The position numbers and the translations under genes were made by a program. From a virus (taxonomy: Duplodnaviria > Caudoviricetes), in the IMG/VR virus record IMGVR_UViG_3300037851_000360, positions 24,001 through 88,000 of that record: DNA of 64,000 bases. One strand, given 5' to 3'. Positions 16,281-62,576 of this stretch are shown piece after piece; the stretch's first letter is position 1, and every line of letters starts with the position of its first letter. The notes under the pieces were generated by a model, which was not told the origin of the DNA, searched no databases, and saw nothing but the letters and a program-made list of their open reading frames with translations.

Positions 16281-17294
16281 TTACTTGGTTGCGTGAAAGA
16301 TGGATTCCCATACTGGCACGGTCTTTTCCAAACCAGCCTTGTTTAGTTCTTCCCAATTTCCACATTCTGCCAGTTTGATCATGTGGTCGATTCTTCTTGC
16401 GATTGACTCACGGATTTGACCGGCGTTGATATTTCCTACCTTGGCAACTTTCACTGCCTGTTCATTTGTGAAGCCTTTTTTCATTCCCGTTGCGTTCTCA
16501 CGAACGTCAATGTTGTGATAGATTGACTCCATAAGGTTGACGAGTTCCGTCAACTTGTGCTTGTAAGGGCAGTCAGGAAGACCACAGTTTTCAAATGCTT
16601 TGCGAAGACGATCCGACTTGTCAGCGACCGAGTGAATCTCAGTCATATCAAGACGATTCTTTTCGCCAAAGTTTTCCTTGTTCTCTTCTCCACTGATGAT
16701 GGTGTGGTCATCCTTCACGGTGTGCTTCGTCGTTCCTGCAAATTCTTCTTCAAGAGGAGGAGTTTCCTTCTTGTTTTCTTTGTCGTGGGTGTAAGCGGAA
16801 ATGGTCCATCTCTTACCCTTCATATCAGAAGTTAGACCTTTTCCGAGCATTTTTGCCCCGCCTTCTTGGATTGGTGATAATGGAGCCGGGCTTGACAATC
16901 CAATTGCTGACACGCATACCACATTGGCTGTGTCTCGGTCGGCATCAGGAAATTCAGGAGTTCCACCGATTTTGCCAGAATATTGTTGGGTATCTTTGAA
17001 ATTTTCATCCGCTTCCTTCCCGTCTTTCAATTCATCTGCCAATCCAGCACGTTTCATTCCGCTGTAGTACTTTGGATTTTCCTTGAGGTGATCGAGGGCA
17101 ATCTTTGCAGCCTGACGGGGGTCGGTCGTGTGTTCCATCTCGACCTTGATTCCCATGATAAGTTCGTTCTTATCAATCTTCAATGCGGCAACTGGCGCGG
17201 CAACAACTGGTGCTGCTGGCGCTTGAACTTGTGCCAAGCCGGGCGATGACAAACCCAACGAGTGTATTTCTGTAAAGAATGATTTGAATTTCAT
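16281..17294 (-). CDS. putative internal head protein with DUF5661-like domain
   Basis: GIKVEMEHT...AKIALDHLKENPKYYS motif; CTS-like start MKFKSFFTE. Confidence 0.55.
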   Translation of the reverse strand: MKFKSFFTEIHSLGLSSPGLAQVQAPAAPVVAAPVAALKIDKNELIMGIKVEMEHTTDPRQAAKIALDHLKENPKYYSGMKRAGLADELKDGKEADENFKDTQQYSGKIGGTPEFPDADRDTANVVCVSAIGLSSPAPLSPIQEGGAKMLGKGLTSDMKGKRWTISAYTHDKENKKETPPLEEEFAGTTKHTVKDDHTIISGEENKENFGEKNRLDMTEIHSVADKSDRLRKAFENCGLPDCPYKHKLTELVNLMESIYHNIDVRENATGMKKGFTNEQAVKVAKVGNINAGQIRESIARRIDHMIKLAECGNWEELNKAGLEKTVPVWESIFHATK

Positions 17295-17296
17295 GA

Positions 17297-18409
17297 TTAC
17301 TTCTTCTTCATCTCCCTCATGATGGAACTGATTGATTCAATTGAGCGACCTTGTGTTCTTTGAGCGACACCGTTTCGCATGATTTCAGCAATGGAGTCTG
17401 GAACTACTTGTTTCTTAGGTGTCATTCCACGAATGATGGAAGCAATCTCATTGACGTTTACTTTGTCGTCTGGCAATTCTTCTGATCTGTTGATTCCGAG
17501 CATTTGTAGTCCTGAGTAATAGTTTGGGTTTTTCTTAATGTTGGCAATGGCGATCCTCTTGGATTCGTCTTTGTCTTGGTCGAATCGACGAGACATTTCG
17601 TATTTGATTCCGATGAACAATTCATCCGGATCAATACCGGGCTCTTTGAGGTCTTCTGGCTTGATCGAGTCATATGGTGCCCAACCCATCACCGTATTTC
17701 CGTTCATCGGTATTTCTCTCGATCCGAGAGTAGATGAACCAGCAAATTTGTTTGGATTCTGTCTTACACCGGGAGAAGCAAATGTTCCGAACGCACCCAA
17801 CGGAGCAACGGCACCACCGGCTGATCCATATCCACCGGAACTTCCACCATATTGACAGAACTCTTTCAAAACAGCCTTCTTCCAATCCTTGTCGCTATAG
17901 AGAATCTTGCTGAATGCAAGTTCCTTTCCTACGAATCTTTGATCCCCGACAAACTCATCTCCCTTACCTTTCTTTAGGTATGCGATGGTTACGTGAGGAT
18001 GATAGTCAGTGTATGAATTCTTCCAATTGACGTTATCCTTGATCAAGCCATTCAATTCATGAAGGTCTTCTGACTTGACTTCGATCTTGAGAACGTCGAA
18101 TTTCTCATTTCTGAATTTGGATACGACGCCGAGAGAAGCGGAGAGTGGAGTTTCAATCTGACCGATCAATTTCTTGACCTGATCCTTTCCGCCATTTTCA
18201 ACTCCATACAATACGGTGATGTGGGGATCATCTTCACGCCCCTTAATATCATCCTCTTCATCGACGTAAATGTAATCCTCGGGGATAGCCTTAATGAATT
18301 CCATCAACTCTGGAAAGTGTGGAACTCTAACCATTACAGTTTCCTCGAACCCTTCAGCACCCTCAGTCAAGAGAGCCTTCATCATTGATCTGTAGGTTAC
18401 GTCTTTCAT
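17297..18409 (-). CDS. 2H phosphoesterase (Acb1/2'-5' ligase-like) fused to a DUF5661-like domain
   Basis: Two HxT motifs, PHITVLY and PHVTIAY; C-terminal GIKYEM...IAIANIKKNPNYYS. Confidence 0.75.
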   Translation of the reverse strand: MKDVTYRSMMKALLTEGAEGFEETVMVRVPHFPELMEFIKAIPEDYIYVDEEDDIKGREDDPHITVLYGVENGGKDQVKKLIGQIETPLSASLGVVSKFRNEKFDVLKIEVKSEDLHELNGLIKDNVNWKNSYTDYHPHVTIAYLKKGKGDEFVGDQRFVGKELAFSKILYSDKDWKKAVLKEFCQYGGSSGGYGSAGGAVAPLGAFGTFASPGVRQNPNKFAGSSTLGSREIPMNGNTVMGWAPYDSIKPEDLKEPGIDPDELFIGIKYEMSRRFDQDKDESKRIAIANIKKNPNYYSGLQMLGINRSEELPDDKVNVNEIASIIRGMTPKKQVVPDSIAEIMRNGVAQRTQGRSIESISSIMREMKKK

Positions 18410-24954: not shown

Positions 24955-24963
24955 ATATTTATA
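24955..24963 (+). promoter_or_regulatory. putative late promoter motif ATATTTATA
   Basis: 4 nt upstream of the ATG at 24968. Confidence 0.6.
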
Positions 24964-24967
24964 GAAG

Positions 24968-27900
24968 ATGAACGAGTTGACGAAACATTTGGTTGAGGGA
25001 GTGATTAACGAAATCGCAATGGCACCTATCCCGGTGTTCATATATTCCGGTCATTTTCAACCACCGCATTTGGGAAACAAGTGGGTCTGGGACTGGCTCG
25101 CAAAGACAAGAGGAGCGGACAAATGCTTCATTGCGACTCCAAGTGATGCTTCACCACTGACCTTTGCCGAAAAGAAATCGGTATTCGCAGCGATGGGAAT
25201 GGATTCATCAAAGGTCAACCAATCCATCGGTTTGTTTAGAGCGCCATCCATCACTGAAAAGTTCGACGTGAACAAGTATGCATTCGTTTATGTTGTGAAT
25301 GAAGTTGATGCCGGAAACGTTCCCCCTCGCTTCAAGCCATACAAAGATAAGATGGTGATCACACCACACATCCTTGGCGAATCATACTACATGGTCGTTC
25401 CGAAGGAAGCATTCACCGTTGGAGGAATCACAATTGACGACGAAAAGGTTATCAAGTTCCTCGGCTCACCAAAGATGGATTACAAAACCTCAATGGAGGC
25501 ATTCCACAAGTTCTTCGGATTCTTCGATGAGCACATGTTCAATGTTCTCGTGAAGAAGTTTGAGAAAACCGTTAAGGAAGACATTACCCCAATAGTTCAG
25601 ACAACGGAGCAATCGTCAAGCCTTTCACCTCAATTCAAGGCACCGACACTAAGCGTTTCTGAGAGAGCCTCTCTTGCTGAAAGAATGGGAGTCGAACAAT
25701 CGTGGGTAGATGAACTTTTGACAGAAGACCCCGATGGCGTTGATGATGGAGATGAGGTGCATCCTTGGGATAGCCGTCAGGCATACCCATTCTTTTTGAT
25801 TGACGACTTTTTGTTGGTCGGAAGACCAGCATCCACACACAGAAGTTTGATCAAGGCTCTGAACTTCACTCCAGACGACCTCCACCGATTCACTCGACCG
25901 AATAATACCGACTCAGCGTTTTACGTTGAAAAGTTGAAAAGCATTCTTCAAAACAATTTGGATTATCTTGAGATGGATGATCCCGACGATGAGTTTAACG
26001 GGGCGTATGAACGAGACGAAGCATCAATGAAATTCGTTGCCGGAAGATTGTGGAAAAACGAACAGATAATATCGTTTTGGTCTCCAAAATCCCTCGTGGT
26101 GAAAAATTGGGAAACTCTGAAAAAAGCAGTGTCAAAATTTCATTCGTTTGGCAACCTCGACGACTATAGAATTGACTGGATTGAAAGAGATTCAAGCGAG
26201 CCTATGACCGATGGTTCGTCAATATCATCAACTTCATCCAATACGAAAGACGACTTGTCTCCAGAAGAATACAAGAAGTTGCTATCAAAGCAGCATCTTG
26301 ACCCAAACGCCAAGAAAGTATTGGCAAAGATGGCAGAACATCCAAACAAAGCCGCTGAAATCGCCGATAAACTTGGTATGTCTGTGGCAGAACTCAATCA
26401 CTTGATTGGTGTTGTGGCAGAAGGAGCGACGGCACAAATCTTGAAAGAAGACCCGGATGAAGTTGTCGATGAAGATGGAACGGCAATCGCATATTTGGAG
26501 GAGAATGACACAAGAGCATTCTTCTTCTTTGACGACGTTGCCATTTTCTCCATTCCCGGTGGTCGCCACGAGGAACTATTCAACACCATCAAAAGAGTTG
26601 CCGAAGTCGGGCGGTTCGACCGTGTTGACCTTGAAAGAATGGTCATTGCTGATGGAAAGCCAAACAAAGCAGACTTGGTTCGAGTAGTTCGTGCATTCAC
26701 AAAATACAAGAGTCAGATTTTCAGTGGTTCTGGAAGAAACATTGCCGGTGTTCTGGTTGGTAGAGTGTGGACAGAAAAGAAACTCATGTCGTTCTGGACA
26801 CTGAAGAGGGTTGCCATCAAGAGTTGGGATAACGTCGAGAAGATTTTCCAACAGTTTCCAAACCTTCTAGGAAACCGTCATGAATACAGAATCGACTGGC
26901 TCGAACGTGCATACAAGAAGCCGATTCCTCCATTGACAAGATTTGACAATGCACGTGATGGAGCACCAGAGGAGAAGATCACCCCCGAGAAGTTGAAAGA
27001 CCTTCTATCCAAGCAACACCTTGACCCAAAGGCAAAGGAAATCTTAAAGAAGGTTCAGGGTCTTCCTCCCAACAAGGCAGCACACCTCGCCACATTGCTT
27101 GGATTCAACAGCCCGGCAGAAATGTTCTATCACCACGGGCACGACGGAAGCGGTGGAACTCAAAAGATAAATGAAGACCCCGGAGAGGTTTACGAGAAGA
27201 ACAAAGAGATTCTCAACTACACCGCCGAGGATGCAGTTATTTTCATCACACTTGAAGACGGAACGATCTTTGGCGGAAACGGAATGCTTCACGAAGAACT
27301 TTATCACAGCATTCTCAGTTACATTTTCAAGCGAGAATGGAAGTATGTGGAAAATGATGGATATTTCTCCGATCAAAAGAAAGTGGAACGTTATCTAATC
27401 ATCAAAGGAAAATACCTCGCAGATCATGACAAGATTCAAGATGATGGTCGATCACCATATAAGGGTTTGGCGGGAAGAATTTGGACAGACAAGAGAGTAA
27501 TTTCATTCTGGCAAACTCCGGAAGAAACTCGTCCACACTGGAAGAAGATTGAAGAAGCGTTTGCTCGCGATCCTCAACCCTGCCGCCAAAAGGATGGTTC
27601 GACAAAGAACAGCCAACCACTTCACCTAGGAAAACTTGAAGAATACCGTCTCGACTTCGTTGATAGTGGCGGAAATGCTGACGGATTGATTCCAGTTCAA
27701 AGTTTCCTATCAGGTGAGATGAAAAAGAGCCGCCTATCCCCCGAGGAATACAAAGAACTTCTCGCAAAACAGCACCTTGATCCAGAGGCAAAGAAAAAAC
27801 TTGCCGCCGATCTTGAAGGTGGTCCTTATAACAAGGCTGCTGAATTGGCAAAGAAACTTGGCTACGACTCTGTTGCTCAGATGAACGCTGACATTCACAC

Positions 27901-30900
27901 AAATCTCGACGAGAAGAAACTCACGGAGAGCCCCGATGTTGTACGCGACGTTGCACGTGAAGATGATGCTGAGATGCCAAGAGATTTGGCTACATACGGA
28001 GATGCTGACGCCACCACGTTTGTTGCATTTGAAAACTTCGACATCACCACGGGAATGTATCACTATCACATTTTCAAGGCACTCCAAGAATTTGACAGAA
28101 TGGGAAATTGGAAATACGCCGATGGAAACTACATGGATTTTGATAAAGAGGCTGCTGCGGAATACATTCGCAGCGATCTTCCAGAAGAATTTGACGGGTC
28201 TGATGTGAATGAGGGTCGAGAATTCCCACACGCTCTTGCGGGGCGTCTCTGGACCAATAAGAAAATCATATCATTCTGGCATCATCAATCCGAAGTTCAA
28301 CACTACTGGAATAATGTGGTGGAAATGTTCCAGAGACACACCGAGTTTGGTTCGTTGGATGATTACCAGATCGATTGGTTGGAACGGTCGGAGGATTTGA
28401 CTCTTCCGCTAACCAAGGCAAGTACGTCAGCCAAGCCGAACATAGAAAAGAAAACTAACTCTTCTGTGGATAAATTGGATGCCGTCAAGAAGGCTATGCA
28501 CGTTATGGACCCGGGTGCGAAGGGTCAACTCATGAAAATGCTCCAAGGTGCAAGCCCAAACAAAAAGCAAGAGATTGCCGACAAACTTGGAATTTCCGTG
28601 GCACAACTCAATGCTATGGATCGCATGGATGAAGCAGTCAATTCTCCAGACAAGCCGGTAATCGCAATTTACTCGGGAAGATTCCAACCATTCCACATCA
28701 ACCACTACAAGGCATATCAGGAAATGGTCAAGGAGTTCGGTAAGGATAACGTATTCATCGTCACCAGCGATAAGACGGAACCCGGCACCAGCCCATTCGA
28801 TTTCAAGCAGAAGTCGCAAATCATGACTCGTGTGTTCGGTATTCCACAGAGACAAATTGTGGAAGCACTTCACATGAATGGCGACAAGCCAAACCGTGGT
28901 CCATACTTCACCATCGACAAGACGGCAGGAAAGTTGAGCGATTGGATGAAGGAAATCGCGAAGCGTATGGGAATGAACCCCGACAATCCACCCCCATTCG
29001 GTCTCGTCATCGGATTTGGTGGCAAGGATGAAGCCAGAAGCAGAATCGCCAAATCTGAATACTCTCCCGGAAAGCCCGTTCCAAATTTCATGCCCGAAGG
29101 AAACGTCATGTCGTTTACCATTCCAATGCAGGATGTGAATTTCAAGGGACACGTCATCAATGGAACCATGGTTCGAGAAATCATCACGAAGCATCCCGAG
29201 ATGGCTGATATGCTATTCAAGATTCTCTATCCACAGGGAATCGATCCACAGACAAAGGCTATGATCGTTTCCACGATCCAGTCGTCAATTGCACCAGAGC
29301 CAAAGGTAAAGAAGAAAAAACTTGAAGAAGGAGTTCAGTTCGGATTCATTAAGCACATCGAAGACATGTCTCCAGAAGAACTCTTGAATTTTTTCAAGTT
29401 GTGGAATGCGGATCAAACGAAATTTGAGACGTTCGAGAAGGTAGACGGAAACTTCTATCGATTTGGATTGAGCGTTGGAAAGTTCTACGTCAAAGATTCC
29501 AAGCAGGCTTATAACAAACCCGAAGAATATCCAGAGCCATACTTCTACGATGACTTCCGTCGATTCCATGCGGAATTGCAAAAGATCGATTGGTCTCTCA
29601 TCTTGAAAGAAGTTGGAGCATACGACAATCTGAACTTCGAAGCCGACAGTGAAGCCGTTCCACACGCTCACCACAATCAGGTTGAGTACAATGGAAAGAT
29701 CATCGGTGAAGGAATCGTTGTCATCTTTGGATTGACAATGGATGGATCGAAGACCGACTACAACACTATTGTCAAGTTCTGCAAGAAGGCAAACGAGCAC
29801 AGCCCAAAGATCAAATTCCACGCTGTTCCAAAGGTTGACCTTTCCAAGATCAAGTTCGACACATCCACGGTCGAGACTCTGGAATCTCTCATCACCAAGC
29901 ACGGAAACTTCCTCAAGAAGCCTGCTAGAAAGCCAGAAGACAAAGCCCTCAAGCAAAAGATTCTCGGTTTGATCCATGACATTGCTGTTAAGGCAAAGAA
30001 TCGCGTGTTTTCCACAAACATCAAGTCGGCATTCGGTCAAGACTATGAAGGAATGGTCGTTCACCTTCCCGGTGGAGGTATGGTCAAGTTCGTTGACAAA
30101 GACAAGTTCACAAAGTCGAAGGATGAAAGTTGGAAGGTCATCTCCGACATGGATTCCGTTCTCAAGCCAATTCGCGACGATATGAAGAAAGGTGTCGCTG
30201 ACGGGATGATGCAGAGATTGCAATCCGCCAAGACACAAATCACCACAATCTACAACGCCTTCAAGAAGAATCCCGAATCGGTAAAGAGCGAAAAGAAGCG
30301 TGAGGATACTCACAAGCACTATGACCTTCTCATGAAACAGATTGACAAGGCATTGGCTTCTCTTCAGCAGGGTCAACCTGTAACCCAACTGCGCGAAAGC
30401 GGAAAGGCAGTCGGTGAGGTCAACCCAATCCCAAGAAGTTACCTTGAAAAAACCGTTGAGCACGCTCTCAACATTTGGGGATTCAAGGGAACCCCATACG
30501 AACTTCTTGGAAACATCAACAAGGATATCCTCGGAGATATTGACGTTGGAATCGATTACCCACATGTAGAAAAAGTCGTAGGTGCTGCGCCCGACTCTCC
30601 CGATTTCTGGCAGAAGGTTGAAGAATACTTCAGCAAGCAGTCGAGTAAGGTTCAAGGTCGCGAACCGAAATACAAGATCATGAAGGGTCTCGAAATCGTT
30701 TCCGTTCTTTCCTTTGCCGTTGATGAAACTGGCAAGGTTCATCCCGAACTACCAGTTCAGGTTGACATTGCATTCGGCGACATGAAATTCATGAAAGCCG
30801 GTCGCAGCGGAGCACCAAAGGATAGCAAATACAAGGCTCTCCACAGAAACATTCTCCTTGCTGATATCCTCTCGACTATCTACCACGAGCAGGTAGACGA

Positions 30901-31204
30901 CAAGACCCGTCGCCGTTATCAAATCAATATTTCCAAAGGCGTGCAGACTGCGGATTTGATTAAAGGACCAAGAGGCGGCGAAAAGAAAGCCAATGTCAAG
31001 ACCATCATCAACGACCCCGACAAGATGGCAGAACTTCTTTTCGGCCCGGGAATGAAGTGGGAAGACATGAACAGTTTCGAGAAGTTATACAAACTCCTCG
31101 TCGGTCCAAAATTCCGCTACAAAGACAAAGTTAAAGAAATCGTCGATAAGTTCAAAGACTCCATGAAACGTATGGAGCGTGATGTTCCTTCGGAACTTGC
31201 GTAA
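24968..31204 (+). CDS. 2078-aa multidomain protein: 2 HxGH-like nucleotidyltransferases, 4 tandem unknown+HTH modules, KxDG ligase-like domain, Pol-beta-like NTase
   Basis: YSGHFQPPHLGN (25043), YSGRFQPFHINH (28670), EKVDG (29438) with EGMVV and VKFVDK, GDIDVGID (30533) with VQVDI. Confidence 0.75.
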   Translation: MNELTKHLVEGVINEIAMAPIPVFIYSGHFQPPHLGNKWVWDWLAKTRGADKCFIATPSDASPLTFAEKKSVFAAMGMDSSKVNQSIGLFRAPSITEKFDVNKYAFVYVVNEVDAGNVPPRFKPYKDKMVITPHILGESYYMVVPKEAFTVGGITIDDEKVIKFLGSPKMDYKTSMEAFHKFFGFFDEHMFNVLVKKFEKTVKEDITPIVQTTEQSSSLSPQFKAPTLSVSERASLAERMGVEQSWVDELLTEDPDGVDDGDEVHPWDSRQAYPFFLIDDFLLVGRPASTHRSLIKALNFTPDDLHRFTRPNNTDSAFYVEKLKSILQNNLDYLEMDDPDDEFNGAYERDEASMKFVAGRLWKNEQIISFWSPKSLVVKNWETLKKAVSKFHSFGNLDDYRIDWIERDSSEPMTDGSSISSTSSNTKDDLSPEEYKKLLSKQHLDPNAKKVLAKMAEHPNKAAEIADKLGMSVAELNHLIGVVAEGATAQILKEDPDEVVDEDGTAIAYLEENDTRAFFFFDDVAIFSIPGGRHEELFNTIKRVAEVGRFDRVDLERMVIADGKPNKADLVRVVRAFTKYKSQIFSGSGRNIAGVLVGRVWTEKKLMSFWTLKRVAIKSWDNVEKIFQQFPNLLGNRHEYRIDWLERAYKKPIPPLTRFDNARDGAPEEKITPEKLKDLLSKQHLDPKAKEILKKVQGLPPNKAAHLATLLGFNSPAEMFYHHGHDGSGGTQKINEDPGEVYEKNKEILNYTAEDAVIFITLEDGTIFGGNGMLHEELYHSILSYIFKREWKYVENDGYFSDQKKVERYLIIKGKYLADHDKIQDDGRSPYKGLAGRIWTDKRVISFWQTPEETRPHWKKIEEAFARDPQPCRQKDGSTKNSQPLHLGKLEEYRLDFVDSGGNADGLIPVQSFLSGEMKKSRLSPEEYKELLAKQHLDPEAKKKLAADLEGGPYNKAAELAKKLGYDSVAQMNADIHTNLDEKKLTESPDVVRDVAREDDAEMPRDLATYGDADATTFVAFENFDITTGMYHYHIFKALQEFDRMGNWKYADGNYMDFDKEAAAEYIRSDLPEEFDGSDVNEGREFPHALAGRLWTNKKIISFWHHQSEVQHYWNNVVEMFQRHTEFGSLDDYQIDWLERSEDLTLPLTKASTSAKPNIEKKTNSSVDKLDAVKKAMHVMDPGAKGQLMKMLQGASPNKKQEIADKLGISVAQLNAMDRMDEAVNSPDKPVIAIYSGRFQPFHINHYKAYQEMVKEFGKDNVFIVTSDKTEPGTSPFDFKQKSQIMTRVFGIPQRQIVEALHMNGDKPNRGPYFTIDKTAGKLSDWMKEIAKRMGMNPDNPPPFGLVIGFGGKDEARSRIAKSEYSPGKPVPNFMPEGNVMSFTIPMQDVNFKGHVINGTMVREIITKHPEMADMLFKILYPQGIDPQTKAMIVSTIQSSIAPEPKVKKKKLEEGVQFGFIKHIEDMSPEELLNFFKLWNADQTKFETFEKVDGNFYRFGLSVGKFYVKDSKQAYNKPEEYPEPYFYDDFRRFHAELQKIDWSLILKEVGAYDNLNFEADSEAVPHAHHNQVEYNGKIIGEGIVVIFGLTMDGSKTDYNTIVKFCKKANEHSPKIKFHAVPKVDLSKIKFDTSTVETLESLITKHGNFLKKPARKPEDKALKQKILGLIHDIAVKAKNRVFSTNIKSAFGQDYEGMVVHLPGGGMVKFVDKDKFTKSKDESWKVISDMDSVLKPIRDDMKKGVADGMMQRLQSAKTQITTIYNAFKKNPESVKSEKKREDTHKHYDLLMKQIDKALASLQQGQPVTQLRESGKAVGEVNPIPRSYLEKTVEHALNIWGFKGTPYELLGNINKDILGDIDVGIDYPHVEKVVGAAPDSPDFWQKVEEYFSKQSSKVQGREPKYKIMKGLEIVSVLSFAVDETGKVHPELPVQVDIAFGDMKFMKAGRSGAPKDSKYKALHRNILLADILSTIYHEQVDDKTRRRYQINISKGVQTADLIKGPRGGEKKANVKTIINDPDKMAELLFGPGMKWEDMNSFEKLYKLLVGPKFRYKDKVKEIVDKFKDSMKRMERDVPSELA
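25727..28633 (+). repeat. four tandem ~235-251-aa protein repeats
   Basis: Units start at 25727, 26450, 27176 and 27929; conserved GRxW...SFW, YxIDW, KQHLDPxAK, NKAAExAxxLG. Confidence 0.85.
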
Positions 31205-33544: not shown

Positions 33545-33553
33545 ATATTTATA
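33545..33553 (+). promoter_or_regulatory. putative late promoter motif ATATTTATA
   Basis: Upstream of the portal gene. Confidence 0.6.
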
Positions 33554-37279: not shown

Positions 37280-37888
37280 ATGAAGATACCTCTAAACAAT
37301 GTTATTCCATTCGAAATCTCGCCTCGCGTTCTTCAAGAAGTTCGCGAGAACGTATCTGGCCCAGTAACCGTCGAAGGTATCCTACAGAAAGCAAACGAAC
37401 AGAATCAAAATGGTCGTCGCTATCCAAAGCCAATTCTCGAAAGAGAAATCATGAACTACCAAAAGAACTTCGTCAATGAACGTCGTGCTCTTGGAGAACT
37501 CGACCACCCAAATTCGGGTGTAATCAACCTCAAGAACGTATCCCACAACATCGTGGAATGCCATTGGGAAGGCGACAACGTAGTTGGAACCATCGAAATT
37601 TTGACCACGCCCGCTGGAAACATTCTTCGCGAACTCATCAAGAACAACATTCGTCTTGGTATCAGTTCTCGTGGTATGGGTTCCGTTAAGGAACTTCGCG
37701 AAGGTGGTGTTGAGGTACAGGACGACTTCGAACTTCTTTGCTTTGACTTCGTATCCAACCCATCCACCCGTGGCGCATTCATGCAGCCACAATCGCTCAA
37801 TGAAGGTCTTGAAAAGACACTTGAAGCAGTTTCCAAGTACGGAAAAGTCGAAGGATTGATCTACGACCTTCTCTCGGAGATGAAATAA
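37280..37888 (+). CDS. gp21: prohead core protease (T4 gp21-like)
   Basis: ALGELDHP, GISSRGMGSV, FDFVSNPST catalytic motifs. Confidence 0.95.
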   Translation: MKIPLNNVIPFEISPRVLQEVRENVSGPVTVEGILQKANEQNQNGRRYPKPILEREIMNYQKNFVNERRALGELDHPNSGVINLKNVSHNIVECHWEGDNVVGTIEILTTPAGNILRELIKNNIRLGISSRGMGSVKELREGGVEVQDDFELLCFDFVSNPSTRGAFMQPQSLNEGLEKTLEAVSKYGKVEGLIYDLLSEMK

Positions 37889-39676: not shown

Positions 39677-39685
39677 ATATTTATA
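39677..39685 (+). promoter_or_regulatory. putative late promoter motif ATATTTATA
   Basis: 6 nt upstream of the ATG at 39692. Confidence 0.6.
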
Positions 39686-39691
39686 GACACC

Positions 39692-40120
39692 ATGAAACTT
39701 CGCGCACTACTCACAGAAATGGAACAACAGCAAAATCAAGACGCTGTTCGCAAAATGTCTCCTGAACAGAAGAAGACAATGATGGAAATGATTGCCAACT
39801 ACAATGAGTTTGGCAAGCAACTTCGTCGTGAAGGAAGCCTCTGTGATATCGCCAAGCGTTTGAGCGAAATTGCTGCCCACGCAGAAACCATGGCAATGAA
39901 CGAGACCGACGATTGGTTCGATAAAAAGACCGTATCCCGCAACATGGAAGGTCTCAAGAAGTCTTGTGCTGAATTCGATAAACTTGCCAAGGAAGCGCAG
40001 AGTTATCAACAGAGAATGGAAGCACTATACGAGGAAATGGGATTCACTTTGAACCGATACTTCGATATCAAAGACCCCGTGGAAACCCCTGCGGCAAAGC
40101 CAGAAGAAAAGAAAGTGTAA
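39692..40120 (+). CDS. putative prohead core protein (helical)
   Basis: MKLRALLTE start. Confidence 0.6.
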   Translation: MKLRALLTEMEQQQNQDAVRKMSPEQKKTMMEMIANYNEFGKQLRREGSLCDIAKRLSEIAAHAETMAMNETDDWFDKKTVSRNMEGLKKSCAEFDKLAKEAQSYQQRMEALYEEMGFTLNRYFDIKDPVETPAAKPEEKKV

Positions 40121-41604: not shown

Positions 41605-43221
41605 ATGGAAAACGTAAAGTCACTACTCACAGACACGTTCAACCCACAGGCAAAGTTGATGGCTGAAACCCGCAACCTCGTCAACAAGTGGTCAAAGACG
41701 GGTCTCCTCGAAGGTATCGATGCTGATGTTGAGAAATCACACATGGCGATCCTTCTCGAAAACCAAGCAAAGCAGTTGATCGAAGAAGCTACCCGCACCG
41801 GTACCTCCGCTAACTCCGAACAGTGGGCAGGCGTTGCTCTCCCACTCGTCCGTCGTGTGTTCGCAGAAATCGCTGCTAAGGAGTTCGTCTCCGTTCAGCC
41901 AATGAACCTCCCATCCGGTCTCGTATTCTATCTTGACTTCAAGTATGGTACGGATCAGGCAGGTAAGCCAGCATTCAACGGTGCCTCGCTCTTCGGTGGT
42001 AACTCCATCAAGCTCGGCTCGACGGATGCTCCAGTAAACGGTATGTATGGTCAGGGTCGCTTCGGCTACACCATCAATGACCAGACAACCATGAGCGCAA
42101 TCGTATCGCAAGTTTCTTCGTCATTCCGTGACATTAACTTCGTAGACGAACTCTCCGCTTCGATGGCTGCTGGTACCATCCACACCGTCGCTGTCAACAT
42201 GGCAGGCACAAGCTTCGACACACTCGGAGCCCGCGCCTTCACCATCTCCGGTTCCGGAATCACCGACTTCTACCCAGCCTTCACAAAGGTATCGGGTTCA
42301 GCAGTTGTGTTCGTCGTTGAGGCAGCAACCGGCCCTGTGGCATCTCCTGTTCGCGTTGACTTCCACGTTCAGCCAACCCCTGAATCCCGTGGCGACTTCG
42401 AAGACAAGGGACCTCTCGCAGGACCAGCAGGTAACGACAGCGGTCTTAACAAAGACGTTGGAATTCCTGAAGTCAACCTTGAATTGAAGTCTGAAGCAAT
42501 CGTTGCCAAGACCCGCAAGCTCAAGGCAGTCTGGACTCCAGAACTCGCTCAGGACTTGAACGCTTACCACTCGATTGACGCAGAAGCAGAGCTAACCGCT
42601 CTCCTCTCTGAGTACGTATCGATGGAAATCGACCTCGAAATCCTCGACATGTTGATCACTTCTGCTCCTGCAATCACGACCGAATTCTGGTCGGCTCGCA
42701 TCGGTGCCGAATACGACCGTAACCTCTCGCAGTTCGTTGATACGGCTACAAACCGTACGGCTTACGTCAAGAGCACATGGTTCCAGACTCTTGGTAACAA
42801 GATTCAGAAGGTATCGAACAAGATTCACCAGTTGACACTCCGTGGAGGTGCAAACTTCCTCGTCTGCTCACCTGACGTTGCCACAATCATCGAATCCATC
42901 CCCGGTTTCACGACCAACACGGACGGTGATCAGGCTAAGTTCGCAATGGGTGTAGCCAAGGTCGGCGCTCTCGCCAACCGTTGGACCGTCTATAAGAACC
43001 CATACATGACCGACAACGTAATGCTCGTTGGTTTCCGTGGAAACAACTTCCTCGAAACCGGCGCAGTCTACGCTCCGTACATCCCACTCATCCAGACCCC
43101 ATTGGTCTACGATCCAGTTAACTTCACACCACGTCGCGGAGTAATGACCCGTTACGCCAAGAAGTTGGTTCGCCCTGAGTTCTACGGTAAGATCATCATC
43201 GGAAATCTCGATCAGGTTTAA
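41605..43221 (+). CDS. gp23: major capsid protein (T4 gp23-like)
   Basis: VSVQPMNLPSGLVFYLDFKY, KTRKLKAVWTPELAQDLNAYHSIDAEAELT, YAPYIPL, RGVMTRYA. Confidence 0.98.
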   Translation: MENVKSLLTDTFNPQAKLMAETRNLVNKWSKTGLLEGIDADVEKSHMAILLENQAKQLIEEATRTGTSANSEQWAGVALPLVRRVFAEIAAKEFVSVQPMNLPSGLVFYLDFKYGTDQAGKPAFNGASLFGGNSIKLGSTDAPVNGMYGQGRFGYTINDQTTMSAIVSQVSSSFRDINFVDELSASMAAGTIHTVAVNMAGTSFDTLGARAFTISGSGITDFYPAFTKVSGSAVVFVVEAATGPVASPVRVDFHVQPTPESRGDFEDKGPLAGPAGNDSGLNKDVGIPEVNLELKSEAIVAKTRKLKAVWTPELAQDLNAYHSIDAEAELTALLSEYVSMEIDLEILDMLITSAPAITTEFWSARIGAEYDRNLSQFVDTATNRTAYVKSTWFQTLGNKIQKVSNKIHQLTLRGGANFLVCSPDVATIIESIPGFTTNTDGDQAKFAMGVAKVGALANRWTVYKNPYMTDNVMLVGFRGNNFLETGAVYAPYIPLIQTPLVYDPVNFTPRRGVMTRYAKKLVRPEFYGKIIIGNLDQV

Positions 43222-44360: not shown

Positions 44361-45548
44361 ATGAAAGTACAAGCACTCAAGTCGATTATCAAAGAAATCA
44401 TCCGTGAAGAAGTGGATGGAATTCTCCGCGAAACATCCGCTCCCGGTCTAACATTTGTTCCTCTCGAAGACTCTCCGGACATAGGAAGCATTCAAGAATC
44501 TGACGTTAAGGATATTGGAGCGCGTGCGCGAACCATCCCCGACGAAGAGATGAAGAACTACATGGGTCGTGTGGCAGCGGGTGCAAAGACAAAGAAGGAT
44601 CGCTACGACTATCCATACATTCACCGCTCAAACATCGAAACTGTTGATGTGACAGACGATTCTGGCAATCCACAAAAGACAATCGACATTGAAGCATTTA
44701 AGCGATTGGTAGCAAAGCGCCCACCAACACTCCTCAAGCAAAACGCCAAACTCGCAAAAACTGGTGGCGAAACACTTTCATTCTTCAATACAAGCCTTCC
44801 GGCTTTGAAGGGTCTTATCATCAACGAAAAGACAAACGAATTCATGGTTGTCGATACATGTCCATCAGCAGGTTTGTGCAAGACTTTCTGCTACGCAAAG
44901 AAGGGTGGATACGTTCAATGGAAGGCATCATCTCTGAACCAGACTCGCATTCTGAACTTCCTCTTCAATGATTGGGAAGGTTACCGTGATCAGATGATTC
45001 GTGAATTGAATCAGGCTGCAAGCCGAGAAGGAAAGAAAGACAAGAAGACCGTTCTTCGCTGGAACGATTCCGGTGACATGCTTTCCGACAAGTATTTCGA
45101 AATCGTCATGGATATCGCCCGTGCAACTCCCCAAGTTCACCACTACGTTTACACCAAGGAAGTGGCAAAGGCAAAGGCTTATCCAAACAAGCCAGACAAT
45201 TTCATCTTCAACTTCTCACACGGAGCAATCCCAACACAGGACAAACTCATCGATACCGAGAAGGATAAAATGTCGGTTGTAGTTCCACAAGCCTTGGTCA
45301 AGGATTTCATCCACAAGGATAAGGAAAGTGGAAAGTGGGTCTACAACAGCGAAGAAGACGTAAAGAAGATCAAGCAGCGCCTCGCCGCAAAATACAACGT
45401 TGATGTTAAGACCGTTTTGACGGGTGAAGAACTCGTTGATACACCGAAGGGTCAGAAGGGTCAATACAACGTAATCGTTCTTCCAGACGGCACCGACTAT
45501 TCAGCAAGCCGCGATGACGTTCGTGGAACGTTCCTCATCTTCCACTAA
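44361..45548 (+). CDS. Gp88-like Cys-motif protein with CTS-like N-terminus
   Basis: SLPA...TCPSAGLCKTFCYAKKG and LRWNDSGD; MKVQALKSIIKEIIREE start. Confidence 0.6.
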   Translation: MKVQALKSIIKEIIREEVDGILRETSAPGLTFVPLEDSPDIGSIQESDVKDIGARARTIPDEEMKNYMGRVAAGAKTKKDRYDYPYIHRSNIETVDVTDDSGNPQKTIDIEAFKRLVAKRPPTLLKQNAKLAKTGGETLSFFNTSLPALKGLIINEKTNEFMVVDTCPSAGLCKTFCYAKKGGYVQWKASSLNQTRILNFLFNDWEGYRDQMIRELNQAASREGKKDKKTVLRWNDSGDMLSDKYFEIVMDIARATPQVHHYVYTKEVAKAKAYPNKPDNFIFNFSHGAIPTQDKLIDTEKDKMSVVVPQALVKDFIHKDKESGKWVYNSEEDVKKIKQRLAAKYNVDVKTVLTGEELVDTPKGQKGQYNVIVLPDGTDYSASRDDVRGTFLIFH

Positions 45549-47728: not shown

Positions 47729-48568
47729 ATGACTCCAACAGTCAAACTTCGTAACTTCAAATCTCTAACAAAGTTCACTTACGTTGGATTACCTCTCAAT
47801 ATGCGCGAACAACTTACAGCAAATCGTACCTACTATGTTTCCCCATCTGGAAGCAACTCAAACAACGGATTGTCGGCGGGATCACCGTTTCTCACCATTC
47901 AAAAAGCGGTTGATGTTGTGACGAGAACCCTCGATCTGGCTCAATACAATGTCACAATTCAACTTGCGGATGGAACATATACATCCGGTGCAACACTTAT
48001 TGCATACATAGGAACAGGTGCGGTCACAATTCAAGGAAACACAGGAAACGCAAACGCCGTCGTGATCAATCCAACAAATACAAACGCATTTGTAGCGGCA
48101 CAGACCTTGAACTATTGGAATTTGAGTTACATGAGAATCCAAGTCACCGGAACATCCGGTGGAAATGTCGTAGCCACCAACGGCGGAACATTGGTTCTAA
48201 ACAGCGTAAACCACGGATCATGTCCCGACCACCACATCGCTTGTTATGGATTGTCAAATATCGTAGTCAACAACAACTACACCATTTCTGGTGGAGCAAG
48301 AACTCACATGATTTCTGGAACGGGTTCATCCATCAATAATGCAAATAAGACAATCACTCTCTCAGGAACCCCAGCATTCACAGAACGATTTGTTCAATGT
48401 TGGACAACCGGGTTTATATTCGCTGTTAGTTTGTCTTTCTCCGGAGCGGCTACGGGTCAAAGATACATGATGAACATCGGTGGAGTTGTACAAACAAACA
48501 CCGGGAACACATCATATTTTCCCGGAAACTCTGCGGGCGCGACAACCGATTACAGCGTCTACAACTGA
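47729..48568 (+). CDS. beta-helix-like fibre/appendage protein, paralog 1
   Basis: MTPTVKLRNFKSLTKF...MREQLTANRTYYV...TIQKA...DGTY; late motif ATACTTATT at 47715. Confidence 0.7.
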   Translation: MTPTVKLRNFKSLTKFTYVGLPLNMREQLTANRTYYVSPSGSNSNNGLSAGSPFLTIQKAVDVVTRTLDLAQYNVTIQLADGTYTSGATLIAYIGTGAVTIQGNTGNANAVVINPTNTNAFVAAQTLNYWNLSYMRIQVTGTSGGNVVATNGGTLVLNSVNHGSCPDHHIACYGLSNIVVNNNYTISGGARTHMISGTGSSINNANKTITLSGTPAFTERFVQCWTTGFIFAVSLSFSGAATGQRYMMNIGGVVQTNTGNTSYFPGNSAGATTDYSVYN

Positions 48569-58230: not shown

Positions 58231-59076
58231 ATGACTCCCACCGTACGCCTCAGAAACTTCAAATCCCTAACCAAGTTTTCCTACATCGGATTACCATTAG
58301 ATATGCGCGAACAACTAACAGCAGATAGAACATATTACGTTTCCACTACGGGAAATAACTCCAATAACGGTCTAACATCCGGATCGGCATTTCTCACTAT
58401 TGCAAAGGCGACCGATATTATTCTGAAAACATTGGATGGTGCTGGATACACTGCGAGAATTCAACTCGCCGATGGAACCTATAACGAGAGCGTGACCATA
58501 ACATCAGATGCCGTCAATTTTGGTCAAATACACATTCTTGGTAATTTGGCGACACCCGGAAATGTCATTATCAATGACGCGGCGGCAAACAATGCCGTCC
58601 ACGTGGCATATGCCAAAACTCCGATAGACATTAAGGGAGTCCGACTACAATCAACTGGCAGCAGTGGAATATATGCGCATGGAGGAGCATGGATCACGTT
58701 TGGAAAAATTGAGTTTGGAACATGCGGTGGAGCACATCTATACGCCAACGGAGGAAGCACCATTCAGAGTTATGACAACTATACCATCCTCGGAAACGCT
58801 ACATACCACGCGATAGCTCAATTTCAGTCAATGCTGTTCTTTGCGAGTGGAAAAACTACCACCATGTCGGGAACGAGAGCCTTCACAGAATTCCTCAATC
58901 TGTATCACATGTCTTACGCCAACTTTTATTCACAGGTTATCACCGGAACTGCAACCGGAAAACGATACACTCTTGGAATGTTGTCGGGAGTTCTCACTCG
59001 AAACGGCGATGGGAACGTAAACTATTTTCCCGGTAATGTGGCAGGATCGGCTGGGCAAGGATCGCAATATGTCTAA
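58231..59076 (+). CDS. beta-helix-like fibre/appendage protein, paralog 2
   Basis: Shared MTPT..LRNFKSLTKF..MREQLT..RTYYV N-terminus and YFPGxxAG C-terminus. Confidence 0.75.
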   Translation: MTPTVRLRNFKSLTKFSYIGLPLDMREQLTADRTYYVSTTGNNSNNGLTSGSAFLTIAKATDIILKTLDGAGYTARIQLADGTYNESVTITSDAVNFGQIHILGNLATPGNVIINDAAANNAVHVAYAKTPIDIKGVRLQSTGSSGIYAHGGAWITFGKIEFGTCGGAHLYANGGSTIQSYDNYTILGNATYHAIAQFQSMLFFASGKTTTMSGTRAFTEFLNLYHMSYANFYSQVITGTATGKRYTLGMLSGVLTRNGDGNVNYFPGNVAGSAGQGSQYV

Positions 59077-59081
59077 CTCAT

Positions 59082-59924
59082 ATGACACCCACAACCATAC
59101 TTCGCAATTTCAAATCCCTAACCAAGTTCTCTTATATTGGACTTCCTCTCAACATGCGTGAACAACTAACATCGGATAGAACATACTACGTTTCCACAAG
59201 TGGAAACAACTCAAACAATGGTCTCACCGTTGGTACACCATTTCTCACCATTCAGAAGGCAATCGACGTTATCTGTGGAACGTTAGATTTGGGTAATTAC
59301 AATGTAACCGTTCAACTTGCTGACGGAACCTATACAGGTACAGTTACCCTATATCCAGTATTGACCGGAAAAGGTGTTGCCAAAATACAAGGGAACACCA
59401 CGACACCAGCAAATACGGTGATAAATGCTACTTCAAACAACAGCATAACAGCAAATGGTGCTGGTATTAATTGGACAATCAAACACGTGACCATTGCATC
59501 AAGTTATAGTGCAATCGTCGCTTACAATCACGCATTTTTGCTCCTTGATTCCGTCTCATTTGGTTCGGTAACCGGATACCACGTTTATTGTTTGGGCGCA
59601 TACGTGTATATTTCGGGGTCATACACCATCAGCGGTGGTGGAATAGCACACGTTGAAATTCAAGCGGCGGGTGTCGTCAATTTTCAAACGGGAGCAGTTA
59701 CTATCAATTTCACCGGTGCTCCAAACTTCTCATCAGCATTCGTCGAATCCGTCACAAACTCGTGCTGTCAGGCGGTGGGCATCACTTTCACAGGAACATA
59801 TGCATCTGTCACGGGAAAAAGATACAATGTAAATCTTCTTGCAGTTATTCAAGTGAATGCTGGTGCCAACTATTTCCCCGGAAATGTTGCAGGAAGTACG
59901 GCTAACAACTCCATCTACGCATAA
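59082..59924 (+). CDS. beta-helix-like fibre/appendage protein, paralog 3
   Basis: Same shared termini. Confidence 0.75.
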   Translation: MTPTTILRNFKSLTKFSYIGLPLNMREQLTSDRTYYVSTSGNNSNNGLTVGTPFLTIQKAIDVICGTLDLGNYNVTVQLADGTYTGTVTLYPVLTGKGVAKIQGNTTTPANTVINATSNNSITANGAGINWTIKHVTIASSYSAIVAYNHAFLLLDSVSFGSVTGYHVYCLGAYVYISGSYTISGGGIAHVEIQAAGVVNFQTGAVTINFTGAPNFSSAFVESVTNSCCQAVGITFTGTYASVTGKRYNVNLLAVIQVNAGANYFPGNVAGSTANNSIYA

Positions 59925-59926
59925 TC

Positions 59927-60871
59927 ATGGCATGGCGCGGACCAGCTAAAACTTCAACAAATCCTGTTCCCAATAAGGTTCAGGCAGGACCGAACATTTC
60001 CGATTTGCCAAACGACGTGCGTCGTGAGATGCAAAAACGTCGCGATGATGATGTAGAAAAAACATTCTCCGTGACGTTGATGGATATCGACGAAACGATC
60101 TTCAATCACCTAGACAAGAACATCAACGTCACCCTCACCGACAACGGAGAGACCATCAAGGTTCCCGTCATCTTCTCCAACCCGGAACGTTGGGTTGCCA
60201 TCCGCAAGGAAGGTTTTGTACGCGACAAGAACGGAAAGGTTCAGCGCCCAATCGTTGCTCTCAAAAGAACGACGACCGCCAGAAACGATCAATTGATGAC
60301 GTTCAATCGCTATTTGACATACCCTGTCATCCAGCAGAACAACATTAACAATCCATATGACAAGTTCAGCGTACTCTCCGGAGGTCAAAGACCAACATAC
60401 AATGTGTATGGAGTAACTCTTCCCGACCACGTGACCATCACGTATGAATTCATGGCATGGACCGACAAGATTGAACAGATGAATAAAATCATCGAGCAGA
60501 TTAATTTTGCCACCGAGGATTATTGGGGTGACAAGCAGAGATTCCGTTTCAGAACGAGCATCTCCGACTACAATCACCAGATTGAGGTTGTTGCCGACCA
60601 AGACCGTATCATCAGAACATCGTTCACCCTGACCGTTTACGCTTACCTTCTTCCGGAAGTTTATGAAAATCGTCAGTCAACCATGCAGAAGTTCCTCACT
60701 CCTCGCCGTCTGATTGTGAACTCCGAAGTAGTAGTGACGATGCCGCCAACGAACTTCTCTCCCACACCATTCAATAAGGGAAGATACACCGGAACACCTT
60801 ACGAACAAAGAACTCGTAATACAAACGACGAGCCAAACACAAGTTTGAGCAAGTTCGAACCAAAGAAATGA
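59927..60871 (+). CDS. gp15: tail completion / sheath-stabiliser protein (T4 gp15-like)
   Basis: VPVIFSNPERW, RPIVALKRT, PDHVTITYEFMAWT...QMNKIIEQI. Confidence 0.7.
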   Translation: MAWRGPAKTSTNPVPNKVQAGPNISDLPNDVRREMQKRRDDDVEKTFSVTLMDIDETIFNHLDKNINVTLTDNGETIKVPVIFSNPERWVAIRKEGFVRDKNGKVQRPIVALKRTTTARNDQLMTFNRYLTYPVIQQNNINNPYDKFSVLSGGQRPTYNVYGVTLPDHVTITYEFMAWTDKIEQMNKIIEQINFATEDYWGDKQRFRFRTSISDYNHQIEVVADQDRIIRTSFTLTVYAYLLPEVYENRQSTMQKFLTPRRLIVNSEVVVTMPPTNFSPTPFNKGRYTGTPYEQRTRNTNDEPNTSLSKFEPKK

Positions 60872-61725
60872 CTCCAAACGTACGCCTCAGAAACGTCAAA
60901 TCTCTAACGAAGTTCTCATACATCGGACTTCCAATCTCATCTAACATGCGCGAACAACTAACAGCAAACAGAACATACTACGTTGCCACAACAGGCAACG
61001 ACTCAAACAATGGACTGACCGTAGGCTCTCCATTCCTCACTATTCAAAAAGCGGTTGATGTAATTTGCGGAACACTTGATTGTTCTTCATACACCGTAAC
61101 CATTCAGGTTGCAGATGGTACTTACACACTCTCATCACAGATTACTCTATATCCATATTTGGGTACCAAGCCTGTGATAATTCAAGGAAACGCTTCTACC
61201 CCAGCAAACTGTATCATCAACTCATCAGTCGCCGGTTCTACTCTATTTTACGTCGCATCTCCGTTCCAATGGACTATTCGAGGCTTTGATATGGCAAACT
61301 CCGGATCGGATGCAAATTGTGTAAAGGCATTTGACGGAATGGTTCTTATACAAAATTGCAGATTTGGATCAACGACTGGAACACAAATTATCGGTCTTTA
61401 CTCAAGTTTAATCCTTCTCGGAGGATCAATCACTACCTACGGAACCTCTGGCGGGTTTATCGCATCACTTAATGGAGCAAATATAAGAGCACGAGACTAC
61501 AGTGATTACGCAACCATTACCATGTCGTCACCAACATACAGTATAGTTGTTTACGCATACGGTTCCGGCTCTGTAGTTGAAGCACTCTGGTATCAAGCAG
61601 GATCGGCGACTGGCAAACGATACCAAGCCGACAAACTCGCCCTTGTTGATTCGGGTGGTAATGGTGCAACGTATATTCCCGGAAGTATCGCAGGTACCAC
61701 ATCACTTGGAGGTCAATACGGTTAA
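60868..61725 (+). CDS. beta-helix-like fibre/appendage protein, paralog 4
   Basis: Same shared termini. Confidence 0.75.
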   Translation: MTPNVRLRNVKSLTKFSYIGLPISSNMREQLTANRTYYVATTGNDSNNGLTVGSPFLTIQKAVDVICGTLDCSSYTVTIQVADGTYTLSSQITLYPYLGTKPVIIQGNASTPANCIINSSVAGSTLFYVASPFQWTIRGFDMANSGSDANCVKAFDGMVLIQNCRFGSTTGTQIIGLYSSLILLGGSITTYGTSGGFIASLNGANIRARDYSDYATITMSSPTYSIVVYAYGSGSVVEALWYQAGSATGKRYQADKLALVDSGGNGATYIPGSIAGTTSLGGQYG

Positions 61726-61730
61726 TTGTC

Positions 61731-62576
61731 ATGACCCCCACGACCATACTTCGAAACTTCAAACAACTAACTAAGTTCAACTACGTTGGACTCCCCATTT
61801 CTATGCGTGAACAACTAACAGCAAACAGAACATACTACGTCAGAACCGATGGATCAGACTCGAATAATGGTCTCGCCAACACGAGCGGTGGTGCTTTTCT
61901 TACCATACAGAAGGCAATCAACGTCGTGTGTGGAAATCTCGACCTTGGGCAATGGTCGGTAACGATTCAAGTCGGCGACGGAACATACACACAATCCCTT
62001 GTTCTATACAATTGGATTGGAGCCGGAAACGTTTCCATCATAGGAAATGAAACCACACCATCGAATGTGACCATTAGCACTGCATCCAATGGATTCAACG
62101 TAGACGGTCTTAGCAGCATTTGGTATCTATCCGGTATGAGGATTACCACATCCGCTGGAAGCAGCATTTCCATCTCACGCGGATCGGTATTGAGATTTCA
62201 AAATCTTGATTTCGGATCGACTCCCGGAAATCACTTCAACATAGGTTCAGATGGAACTATTATAGTCGAAGGAAACTACAGAATATCCGGAGGCGCTACA
62301 AACCGACACTTTGCCAACTTTGGTGGCTCTGTATTTTTCGCTGCGGCTGCTACAGTAACGGTAACCGGCACACCAGCCTTCACACAGTTTGCCATTGCTC
62401 ACAGAGGAGCACGCATCATAGCAAACGCAACGGTGACATACTCGGGCGCGGCAACTGGTCAGAGATATGAAATTCGCCACAACTCGGTAGTGTTTACTGC
62501 CGGTGTAGCAACATCGACATTCTTCCCCGGAAGCACGGCAGGTGCCGTTGCTGACGGTGGTGCTATTTATTCATAA
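61731..62576 (+). CDS. beta-helix-like fibre/appendage protein, paralog 5
   Basis: Same shared termini. Confidence 0.75.
   Translation: MTPTTILRNFKQLTKFNYVGLPISMREQLTANRTYYVRTDGSDSNNGLANTSGGAFLTIQKAINVVCGNLDLGQWSVTIQVGDGTYTQSLVLYNWIGAGNVSIIGNETTPSNVTISTASNGFNVDGLSSIWYLSGMRITTSAGSSISISRGSVLRFQNLDFGSTPGNHFNIGSDGTIIVEGNYRISGGATNRHFANFGGSVFFAAAATVTVTGTPAFTQFAIAHRGARIIANATVTYSGAATGQRYEIRHNSVVFTAGVATSTFFPGSTAGAVADGGAIYS

Follow-up and report, generated by a model that had tools for sequence, protein, structure and literature searches.

A predicted capsid-targeted polyprotein in an uncultured T4-type phage, with candidate prohead-protease sites at its domain boundaries

Introduction

In bacteriophage T4, a 10-residue capsid-targeting sequence (CTS) is enough to load a protein into the prohead, and the prohead protease gp21 cleaves after L/I-X-E (PMC9026906, PMC8442874). 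Residues 4 and 7 of the CTS serve targeting and residues 8 and 10 processing (PMC9026906), the sequence itself being given in PMC8442874. Here we analyze a 2078-amino-acid (aa) open reading frame (ORF), located at 24968-31204 on the plus strand of a 64,000-nucleotide (nt) stretch of viral DNA, hereafter the window (positions 24,001 to 88,000 of IMG/VR record IMGVR_UViG_3300037851_000360). The window is part of an 88-kb contig estimated to be 43% complete, from an uncultured phage, and a first-pass annotation of its letters had singled out this ORF as a putative polyprotein. The locus resembles the T4 system of internal proteins and Alt in its protease of the Peptidase_S77 family, its Gp23-type capsid protein, its short leader with L8 and E10, its L/I-x-E motif and its cargo that includes enzymes, T4 Alt being an ADP-ribosyltransferase (PMC9026906, PMC8442874). 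It differs in that the T4 internal proteins are small, single and cut once, and Alt is cut at both termini, whereas here one precursor is predicted to yield eight products through seven internal cuts; in addition, the cargo domains are unrelated to T4 IPI-III and Alt.

Giant phages (phiKZ with gp175, SPN3US with gp245, and 201phi2-1) likewise have proteases related to gp21, with cleavage after the Glu of a short motif, and many of their head proteins are processed, some at several sites (PMC9026906, PMC10052503). In SPN3US, the identified cleavages, self-cleavage of the protease aside, yield N-terminal propeptides, some of them further fragmented, and do not separate chains of enzymes (PMC10052503).

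The analogy between injected phage proteins and viral polyproteins was drawn explicitly by Iyer et al., 2017 for the 'polyvalent proteins' of phages, which enter the cell with the DNA (PMC5512222). Polyvalent proteins are giant, join disparate enzymatic domains including Pol-beta nucleotidyltransferases (NTases), are encoded among late virion genes and are predicted to be injected, all features with a counterpart here: the ORF product combines a HIGH NTase, an RNA-ligase-like domain, a Pol-beta NTase and an unassigned module. The paper describes a class built on embedded peptidases (zincin-like MPTase) and on the hub domains ArdC, ART and MuF, which are typical and not strictly required; a Pfam scan of our whole protein at E <= 1 found no such peptidase or hub family (MPTase, ArdC-N, ART, MuF). 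Release is ascribed there to embedded peptidases, in contrast to the trans-acting head protease that we propose to act at conserved linkers, and the domains seen discussed in the paper do not include HIGH-type NTases, this RNA ligase or the repeat module (PMC5512222). The first-pass annotation had called the locus the best candidate in the window for an undescribed system. Release at linkers by a prohead protease does appear to be new, while injected polyvalent proteins have been in print since 2017 (PMC5512222).

The ligase domain of the ORF product is like T4 Rnl1 and Rnl2 in carrying covalent nucleotidyltransferase motifs and in its best fold matches, which are T4 Rnl2 and Rnl1, and the neighbors of its relatives, including a CCA-adding enzyme and AAA_33, recall the T4 RNA repair set. 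T4 Rnl1 and Rnl2 are free cytoplasmic proteins; unlike them, the ligase studied here is always joined to a Pol-beta-type NTase by a protease-type linker, and a leader is present.

Results

Candidate cleavage sites at the domain boundaries

The annotated ORF was borne out: it is open from its ATG and encodes a protein of 236 kDa. Eight junction strings of the gp21 type had been listed as cleavage sites, and all are present at the nucleotides given, the residue after each cut starting at 25013, 25727, 26450, 27176, 27929, 28634, 29330 and 30398 (Table 1). Cutting there would give eight products with computed masses of 26-41 kDa. With 21 occurrences in the 2078-aa protein against ~20 expected from its composition, the [LI]xE motif itself is not enriched, so its placement at the junctions is what needs testing. 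Both the placement of [LI]xE at domain boundaries and its conservation there exceed chance.

Structure models covered four of the sites. For residues 1425-2078, AlphaFold2 with an alignment of 12 homologues gave two folded domains and a mean predicted local distance difference test (pLDDT) score of 82; the only stretches of this model with pLDDT <50 are fragment residues 16-35 and 378-395, which hold the cuts after residues 1454 and 1810. In a model of residues 230-515, the cut after residue 494 again lies within a stretch with pLDDT <50, and the cut after residue 253 lies in a coil (pLDDT ~68) that follows a helix and leads into the first strand of the repeat module. The expectation that the sites would fall in exposed linkers thus held at three of the four (494, 1454 and 1810), which sit between well-folded domains, with the fourth in coil.

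Junctions are conserved in homologues and match leader ends of stand-alone genes

A search of IMG/VR with the whole 2078-aa protein found no relative, tblastn with the same query against cultured phages gave two partial NTase matches and no more, and megablast with 20 kb against cultured phages gave no match. A homologue of 1818 aa (P0002), 64% identical over aligned columns, has the same architecture minus module 2, and this deletion runs exactly from junction to junction. P0002 keeps 7/7 alignable junction sites versus 7/13 of the other [LI]xE sites. The non-canonical MDE junction of the window protein is a canonical IDE in P0002, and the linker at 1810 is rewritten there, with a 4-residue indel, yet I-T-E is kept.

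The C-terminal ligase and Pol-beta pair has 12 more distant homologues (31-37% identity), among which only the two junctions hold a strict [LI]xE in the majority of sequences (9/11 and 11/12). This pair also occurs as separate genes of 650-670 aa, whose leaders of 4 to ~26 residues end in [LI]xE/G (the slash marks the predicted cut), aligned with the LEE/G junction of the window protein; these genes keep the internal hxE/GG site as well (h, a hydrophobic residue). A Pol-beta-only gene in IMG/VR (L021) has a leader ending in LTE/GG, and other IMG/VR genes carry NTase, ligase and Pol-beta domains in differing orders with h-x-E at every joint. One check proposed at the outset, whether the domains exist as separate CTS-bearing genes, therefore had a clear outcome: the ligase and Pol-beta pair, Pol-beta alone and the repeat module all stand alone behind leaders that end in [LI]xE at the junction position. 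Peptidase_S77 was found in three of the five IMG/VR records with ligase and Pol-beta homologues, the other two records being 11% and 29% complete.

By these alignments, h-x-E is all that four unrelated domain families have in common at the N-terminal boundary, and around it they recombine freely; the residues that follow differ by family (xPD, G-I-K-H, GG or an NTase strand). The evidence that weighs heaviest, taken at the level of sequence, is that this shared h-x-E boundary is also the leader end in stand-alone genes.

Genes for a CCA-adding enzyme, Nudix and AAA_33 lie near the homologues in relatives. A further protein (P0003; 2445 aa, on a 22-kb Logan contig) has the same leader type, a HIGH NTase, PolyA_pol (CCA-adding-type) and HD domains and a C-terminal KxDG ligase-like part; its domain set differs, which indicates that phages differ in their cassette sets. 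The window encodes a DUF5661 protein whose N-terminus resembles a leader (16281-17294, minus strand), and DUF5661 also occurs, at L003:20455-20862 on an unrelated 87-kb contig, near a ligase and Pol-beta homologue, together with CCA-adding/HD, Nudix, Mom and AAA_33.

The N-terminal leader

The leader contains VINE/IAM, as annotated, and a candidate site missing from the list of eight, LVE/G after residue 10, so that it probably has two sites, after residues 10 and 15. Both L8-V9-E10 and I13-N14-E15 are kept in P0002, and both positions are still h-x-E in P0003. The leader is identical to that of P0002 at 13/15 residues, against 64% for the protein overall. L8 and E10 are the T4 CTS processing positions 8 and 10 (PMC9026906). 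In T4, an Asp at CTS position 10 prevents processing. At positions 4 and 7 the window protein has L4 and H7, where many stand-alone relatives have aromatics at both. Among the ORFs of the contig, 18/91 have an [LI]xE ending at residues 7-16, against 9.6 +/- 2.8 in internal windows; these leader-type ORFs comprise, among others, ORFs of the head cluster and those for a GP88-family protein and a 2H phosphoesterase.

The repeat module belongs to a large family preceded by h-x-E

The four repeats form one family: the later ones are 34-36% identical to the first, and 29 columns of the alignment are invariant. Each consists of an alpha/beta part and a four-helix tail with weak helix-turn-helix (HTH)-like matches, and the modeled tail suggests nucleic-acid binding. 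The module had no sequence match in the PDB, and structure searches gave a best E of 0.6 (Foldseek against the PDB), a best Z of 4.4 (VIA-wide), a best E of 0.055 (BFVD) and no usable match (ESM Atlas). On these scores we assign the module no fold and do not call its fold new. Pfam and PHROGs scans of 35 family members returned nothing consistent, and tblastn with a single-module protein against cultured phages gave no match.

A profile search with the four repeats retrieved 338 clusters (50% identity), whose proteins hold 1 to 9 copies each. Counting the alignments from 149 proteins that reach the start of the profile, h-x-E precedes 98/99 module copies: the third residue before the cut (P3) is L in 65, I in 23, V in 6, M in 3 and F in 1, and the last (P1) is E in 98. 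Read from sequence, these P3 and P1 preferences agree with gp21. Single-copy module proteins carry leaders, most often of 20 residues, many of them resembling the T4 CTS (M, two residues, an aromatic, K/Q, an acidic residue, F and a later [LI]xE).

Nucleotidyltransferase-like and ligase-like domains

The annotated domains were largely recovered: the second NTase, the ligase, the Pol-beta domain and the repeats by Pfam, fold search or alignment. NTase-1, annotated as HxGH-like, is a diverged copy that has HLGN at the motif. NTase-1 (residues 16-253) matches NTase-2 over 57 aa around the motif (BLASTP E 5e-7) and on its own had no match in Pfam, NCBIfam or a PDB sequence search. HLGN is also present in P0002, and NGTxxR, the second nucleotide-binding motif of NTase-2, was looked for in NTase-1 and not found. 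NTase-1 may be inactive or have another activity.

NTase-2 gave the sole Pfam match of the protein, CTP_transf_like at residues 1234-1270 (27.7 bits against a cut-off of 21). Its motif is H-I-N-H, PHROGs assigns it to cytidyltransferase (phrog_395 at 4.8e-10), and its best PDB sequence match has E 0.008. A nicotinamide-mononucleotide adenylyltransferase (NMNAT; NadM/NadR/NadD) was considered and rejected: the best score was 20.4 bits against NCBIfam equivalog cut-offs of 127-449, and only the motif region aligned. With scores so far under the cut-offs, we call NTase-2 a HIGH-motif nucleotidyltransferase and name no substrate.

Neither C-terminal domain had a sequence match in the PDB, and the ligase domain of the window protein had none in Pfam or NCBIfam; PF09414 is carried by one ligase homologue (P0012). 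In Foldseek searches, residues 1455-1810 matched T4 Rnl2, T4 Rnl1 and archaeal and Naegleria RNA ligases (E 2.6e-5 to 1.5e-3, probability ~1.0), the T4 Rnl2 match having E 2.6e-5, probability 1.0 and a template-modeling (TM) score of 0.40 with a two-domain query. Residues 1811-2078 matched DNA polymerase beta (E 3e-4 upward, probability 1.0). The ligase residues of motif I and motifs III, IV and V (E66, K67, D69, G70, E138, E270, G271, K283 and K287, in fragment numbering) are invariant in 12 sequences, as are G1848, N1849, G1856, D1857, D1859 and D1933 of the Pol-beta domain, its acidic triad included.

Table 1. Predicted segments of the precursor, its upstream motif and the head genes considered with it (coordinates in the window)
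Feature	Coordinates	Strand	Evidence and remarks
TATTTATA motif, 4 nt upstream of ATG	24956..24963	+	motif count
Precursor ORF, 2078 aa, 236 kDa	24968..31204	+	ORF translation
Leader, residues 1-15, CTS-like; LVE/G after residue 10, INE/I after 15	24968..25012	+	leader conservation in P0002; T4 CTS positions
NTase-1, diverged HIGH-type nucleotidyltransferase-like, HLGN for HxGH, 26.8 kDa	25013..25726	+	similarity to NTase-2
Repeat module 1, residues 254-494, helical HTH-like tail, starts DPD after LTE	25727..26449	+	repeat alignment
Repeat module 2, residues 495-736, starts DPD after LKE	26450..27175	+	repeat alignment; missing in P0002
Repeat module 3, residues 737-987, starts DPG after INE	27176..27928	+	repeat alignment
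Repeat module 4, residues 988-1222, starts SPD after LTE, ends in module-tail site MDE/A	27929..28633	+	repeat alignment; IDE in P0002
NTase-2, HIGH-motif (cytidylyltransferase-like), 26.1 kDa	28634..29329	+	Pfam PF01467
ATP-dependent RNA-ligase-like domain, KxDG at K1491, 40.9 kDa, starts GVQ after LEE	29330..30397	+	AF2 model, Foldseek, motifs
Pol-beta-superfamily NTase-like domain, GN..GDID, third Asp in VDI, 30.3 kDa, starts SGK after LRE	30398..31201	+	Foldseek, motifs
Prohead protease, proposed processing enzyme	37280..37888	+	Pfam Peptidase_S77 (PF03420) 3.5e-29; phrog_207 1.3e-54
Gp23-type major capsid protein	41605..43221	+	Pfam Gp23 (PF07068) 1.2e-77

Head genes, upstream motif and other leader-bearing ORFs

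The precursor gene ends 715 nt upstream of the large terminase gene (31919), which is followed on the same strand by the portal (33577), the S77 protease and Gp23-type capsid genes; its placement just upstream of a terminase-portal-protease cluster, as annotated, is therefore correct. In the capsid protein, the Gp23 profile starts at residue 72, and the propeptide before it holds IEE/A after residue 61. Judged by these genes, the phage head is of the T4 type.

The gene had also been credited with a late motif. A motif is present, and what the coding strand reads is TATTTATA, 4 nt before the ATG. Searched on either strand, TATAAATA has 11 matches in the window against 0.59 expected, of which 10 read TATTTATA on the plus strand. 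The sites span 2197-51275 (for example 24956-24963, 33546-33553 and 39678-39685), and most TATTTATA sites lie 4-30 nt upstream of plus-strand gene starts, those of the portal and further structural genes among them. We considered a T4 late promoter (TATAAATA) and rejected it: the coding strand has its reverse complement, only 4 nt from the ATG. Given this orientation and spacing, we report TATTTATA only as a shared motif. Some TATTTATA sites are too near the ATG for a normal 5' untranslated region.

Several other ORFs of the contig have leader-like N-termini. A 370-aa ORF at 17297-18409 (minus strand) has a CTS-like leader ending in LTE/G and a 2H phosphoesterase domain (2_5_RNA_ligase2, 2.1e-7); its match to Acb1, which counters the cyclic-oligonucleotide-based antiphage signaling system (CBASS), is below the cut-off (8.8e-5). 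This protein may be packaged cargo that heals RNA ends or degrades cyclic nucleotides. Between the protease and capsid genes, a 142-aa ORF (39692-40120, plus strand) has a leader ending in LTE/M and a weak ArdA match, also below the cut-off (E 0.0077), and is a candidate internal anti-restriction protein. The GP88-family protein (44361-45548, plus strand; 1.3e-34) is another likely protease substrate because its leader contains IKE and IRE sites. At 47729-48568 and 58231-64000 (plus strand), at least eight paralogous ORFs of ~280 aa share a near-identical N-terminus of ~30 residues (MTPT..LRNF..LTKF...), in an array that continues past the window end.

Discussion

We put at about 0.6 the probability that the 2078-aa protein is a CTS-led cargo precursor which is cut at its linkers by the S77 protease and whose products are ejected with the DNA. 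A T4-type leader would guide the 236-kDa precursor to the prohead's scaffolding core, where the prohead protease would cut after the Glu of [L/I/M]-x-E in flexible linkers, removing the leader and freeing the eight products: a diverged HIGH NTase, four modules, a second HIGH NTase, an RNA ligase and a Pol-beta-type NTase. These would be retained in the head and pass into the cell along with the DNA, so that a single targeting signal would deliver a fixed-ratio set of early effectors. The polyprotein reading is supported in that it passed every in silico check that we ran; packaging, cleavage, ejection and the functions of the products are inferred.

Several observations weigh against this model. 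The cleavage specificity of this S77 enzyme is assumed by analogy with T4. Leader residue 7 is His, whereas targeting in T4 depends on Tyr and Phe at residues 4 and 7. Linker modeling covered four of the eight sites (253, 494, 1454 and 1810), one of which, site 253, is outside any clearly disordered stretch (pLDDT ~68). The ligase and Pol-beta fold matches suffer from the use of a two-domain model as query, which leaves them with modest E-values and low TM-scores. The chief weakness lies in the module family, whose motif is longer, [LI]xE-[SDNT]-P-D, and is retained even with 3-7 preceding residues. The E-x-P-D extension and its persistence behind such short leaders indicate that the motif may be structural; it could belong to the fold or have a function at the N-terminus, instead of or besides being a cleavage site.

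This extended conservation bears directly on the idea that a packaged polyvalent protein is delivered essentially intact, with at most its leader removed, as for P1 DarB and the N4 virion RNA polymerase. The internal h-x-E would then be a linker or domain-capping element, a structural role that E-x-P-D conservation suggests, and large intact cargo proteins are known (PMC5512222). We nevertheless find intact delivery unlikely: four unrelated domain families with differing following residues all retain h-x-E at their boundaries, the junction positions are the leader ends of stand-alone genes, and the sites lie in low-confidence linkers of a protein whose gene adjoins that of a protease family of just this specificity. 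The protein could instead be a cytoplasmic multi-enzyme of RNA repair or nucleotide metabolism that is never packaged, its leader and junction motifs being coincidental or serving another purpose. Packaging is indeed only inferred, and homologues lie near CCA-adding enzyme, Nudix and AAA_33 genes, which are non-virion genes. What makes this quite unlikely, in our view, is that the leader is better conserved (13/15) than the whole (64%), that its type recurs on many ORFs of the contig, that the gene sits within the structural block and shares the upstream motif, and that the P3 and P1 preferences fit gp21.

The invariance of the motif at module starts, whatever the leader length, would also be expected if the repeat module were a self-processing or peptidase domain cutting its own N-terminal [LI]xE/xPD, with no involvement of the prohead protease. 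The weak top Foldseek rows for the module do cluster on CE-clan (Ulp1/SENP) peptidases (E 0.6-2, probability <=0.33). However, these fold matches are not significant (the best Z in VIA being just 4.4), the module has no conserved Cys, and in proteins entirely without the module h-x-E persists both at the ligase/Pol-beta junction and where leaders end, which makes self-processing very improbable.

What the products of the cargo precursor would do is a guess. The association of an RNA-ligase-like domain whose motifs are intact with a Pol-beta NTase and HIGH NTases, together with the leader-bearing 2H phosphoesterase of the contig and the CCA-adding and AAA_33 genes of relatives, suggests that the products repair RNA ends or interfere with nucleotide-based immunity from the very start of infection. 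If the cargo reading is right, an RNA ligase and nucleotidyltransferases delivered ready-made would be candidates for a first-minute defense against host immunity that targets RNA or nucleotides.

A literature search found no paper on the dicing of an enzyme chain by a prohead protease, and to our knowledge no publication describes a prohead protease that acts in trans at conserved linkers to release such products. Beyond this one protein, we lean slightly towards a widespread cargo system in uncultured T4-like phages, in which shuffled [LI]xE-bounded cassettes behind one capsid-targeting leader would be diced by S77 in the head into a stoichiometric injected kit. In that case, the [LI]xE/xPD module, with its 338 clusters and 1 to 9 copies, would be a major new class of phage internal proteins, and this large unannotated family would provide a candidate class of injected anti-defense or DNA-associated proteins. 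Cargo would become predictable from sequence in uncultured T4-like phages through [LI]xE-bounded cassettes and leaders, and such arrangements would serve as natural templates for engineered T4 vectors that package several proteins. T4-type capsid targeting and processing would then be used in nature as a modular delivery platform, with one leader for many cargos, cleavable linkers as recombination joints and enzymes supplied in fixed ratios at infection.

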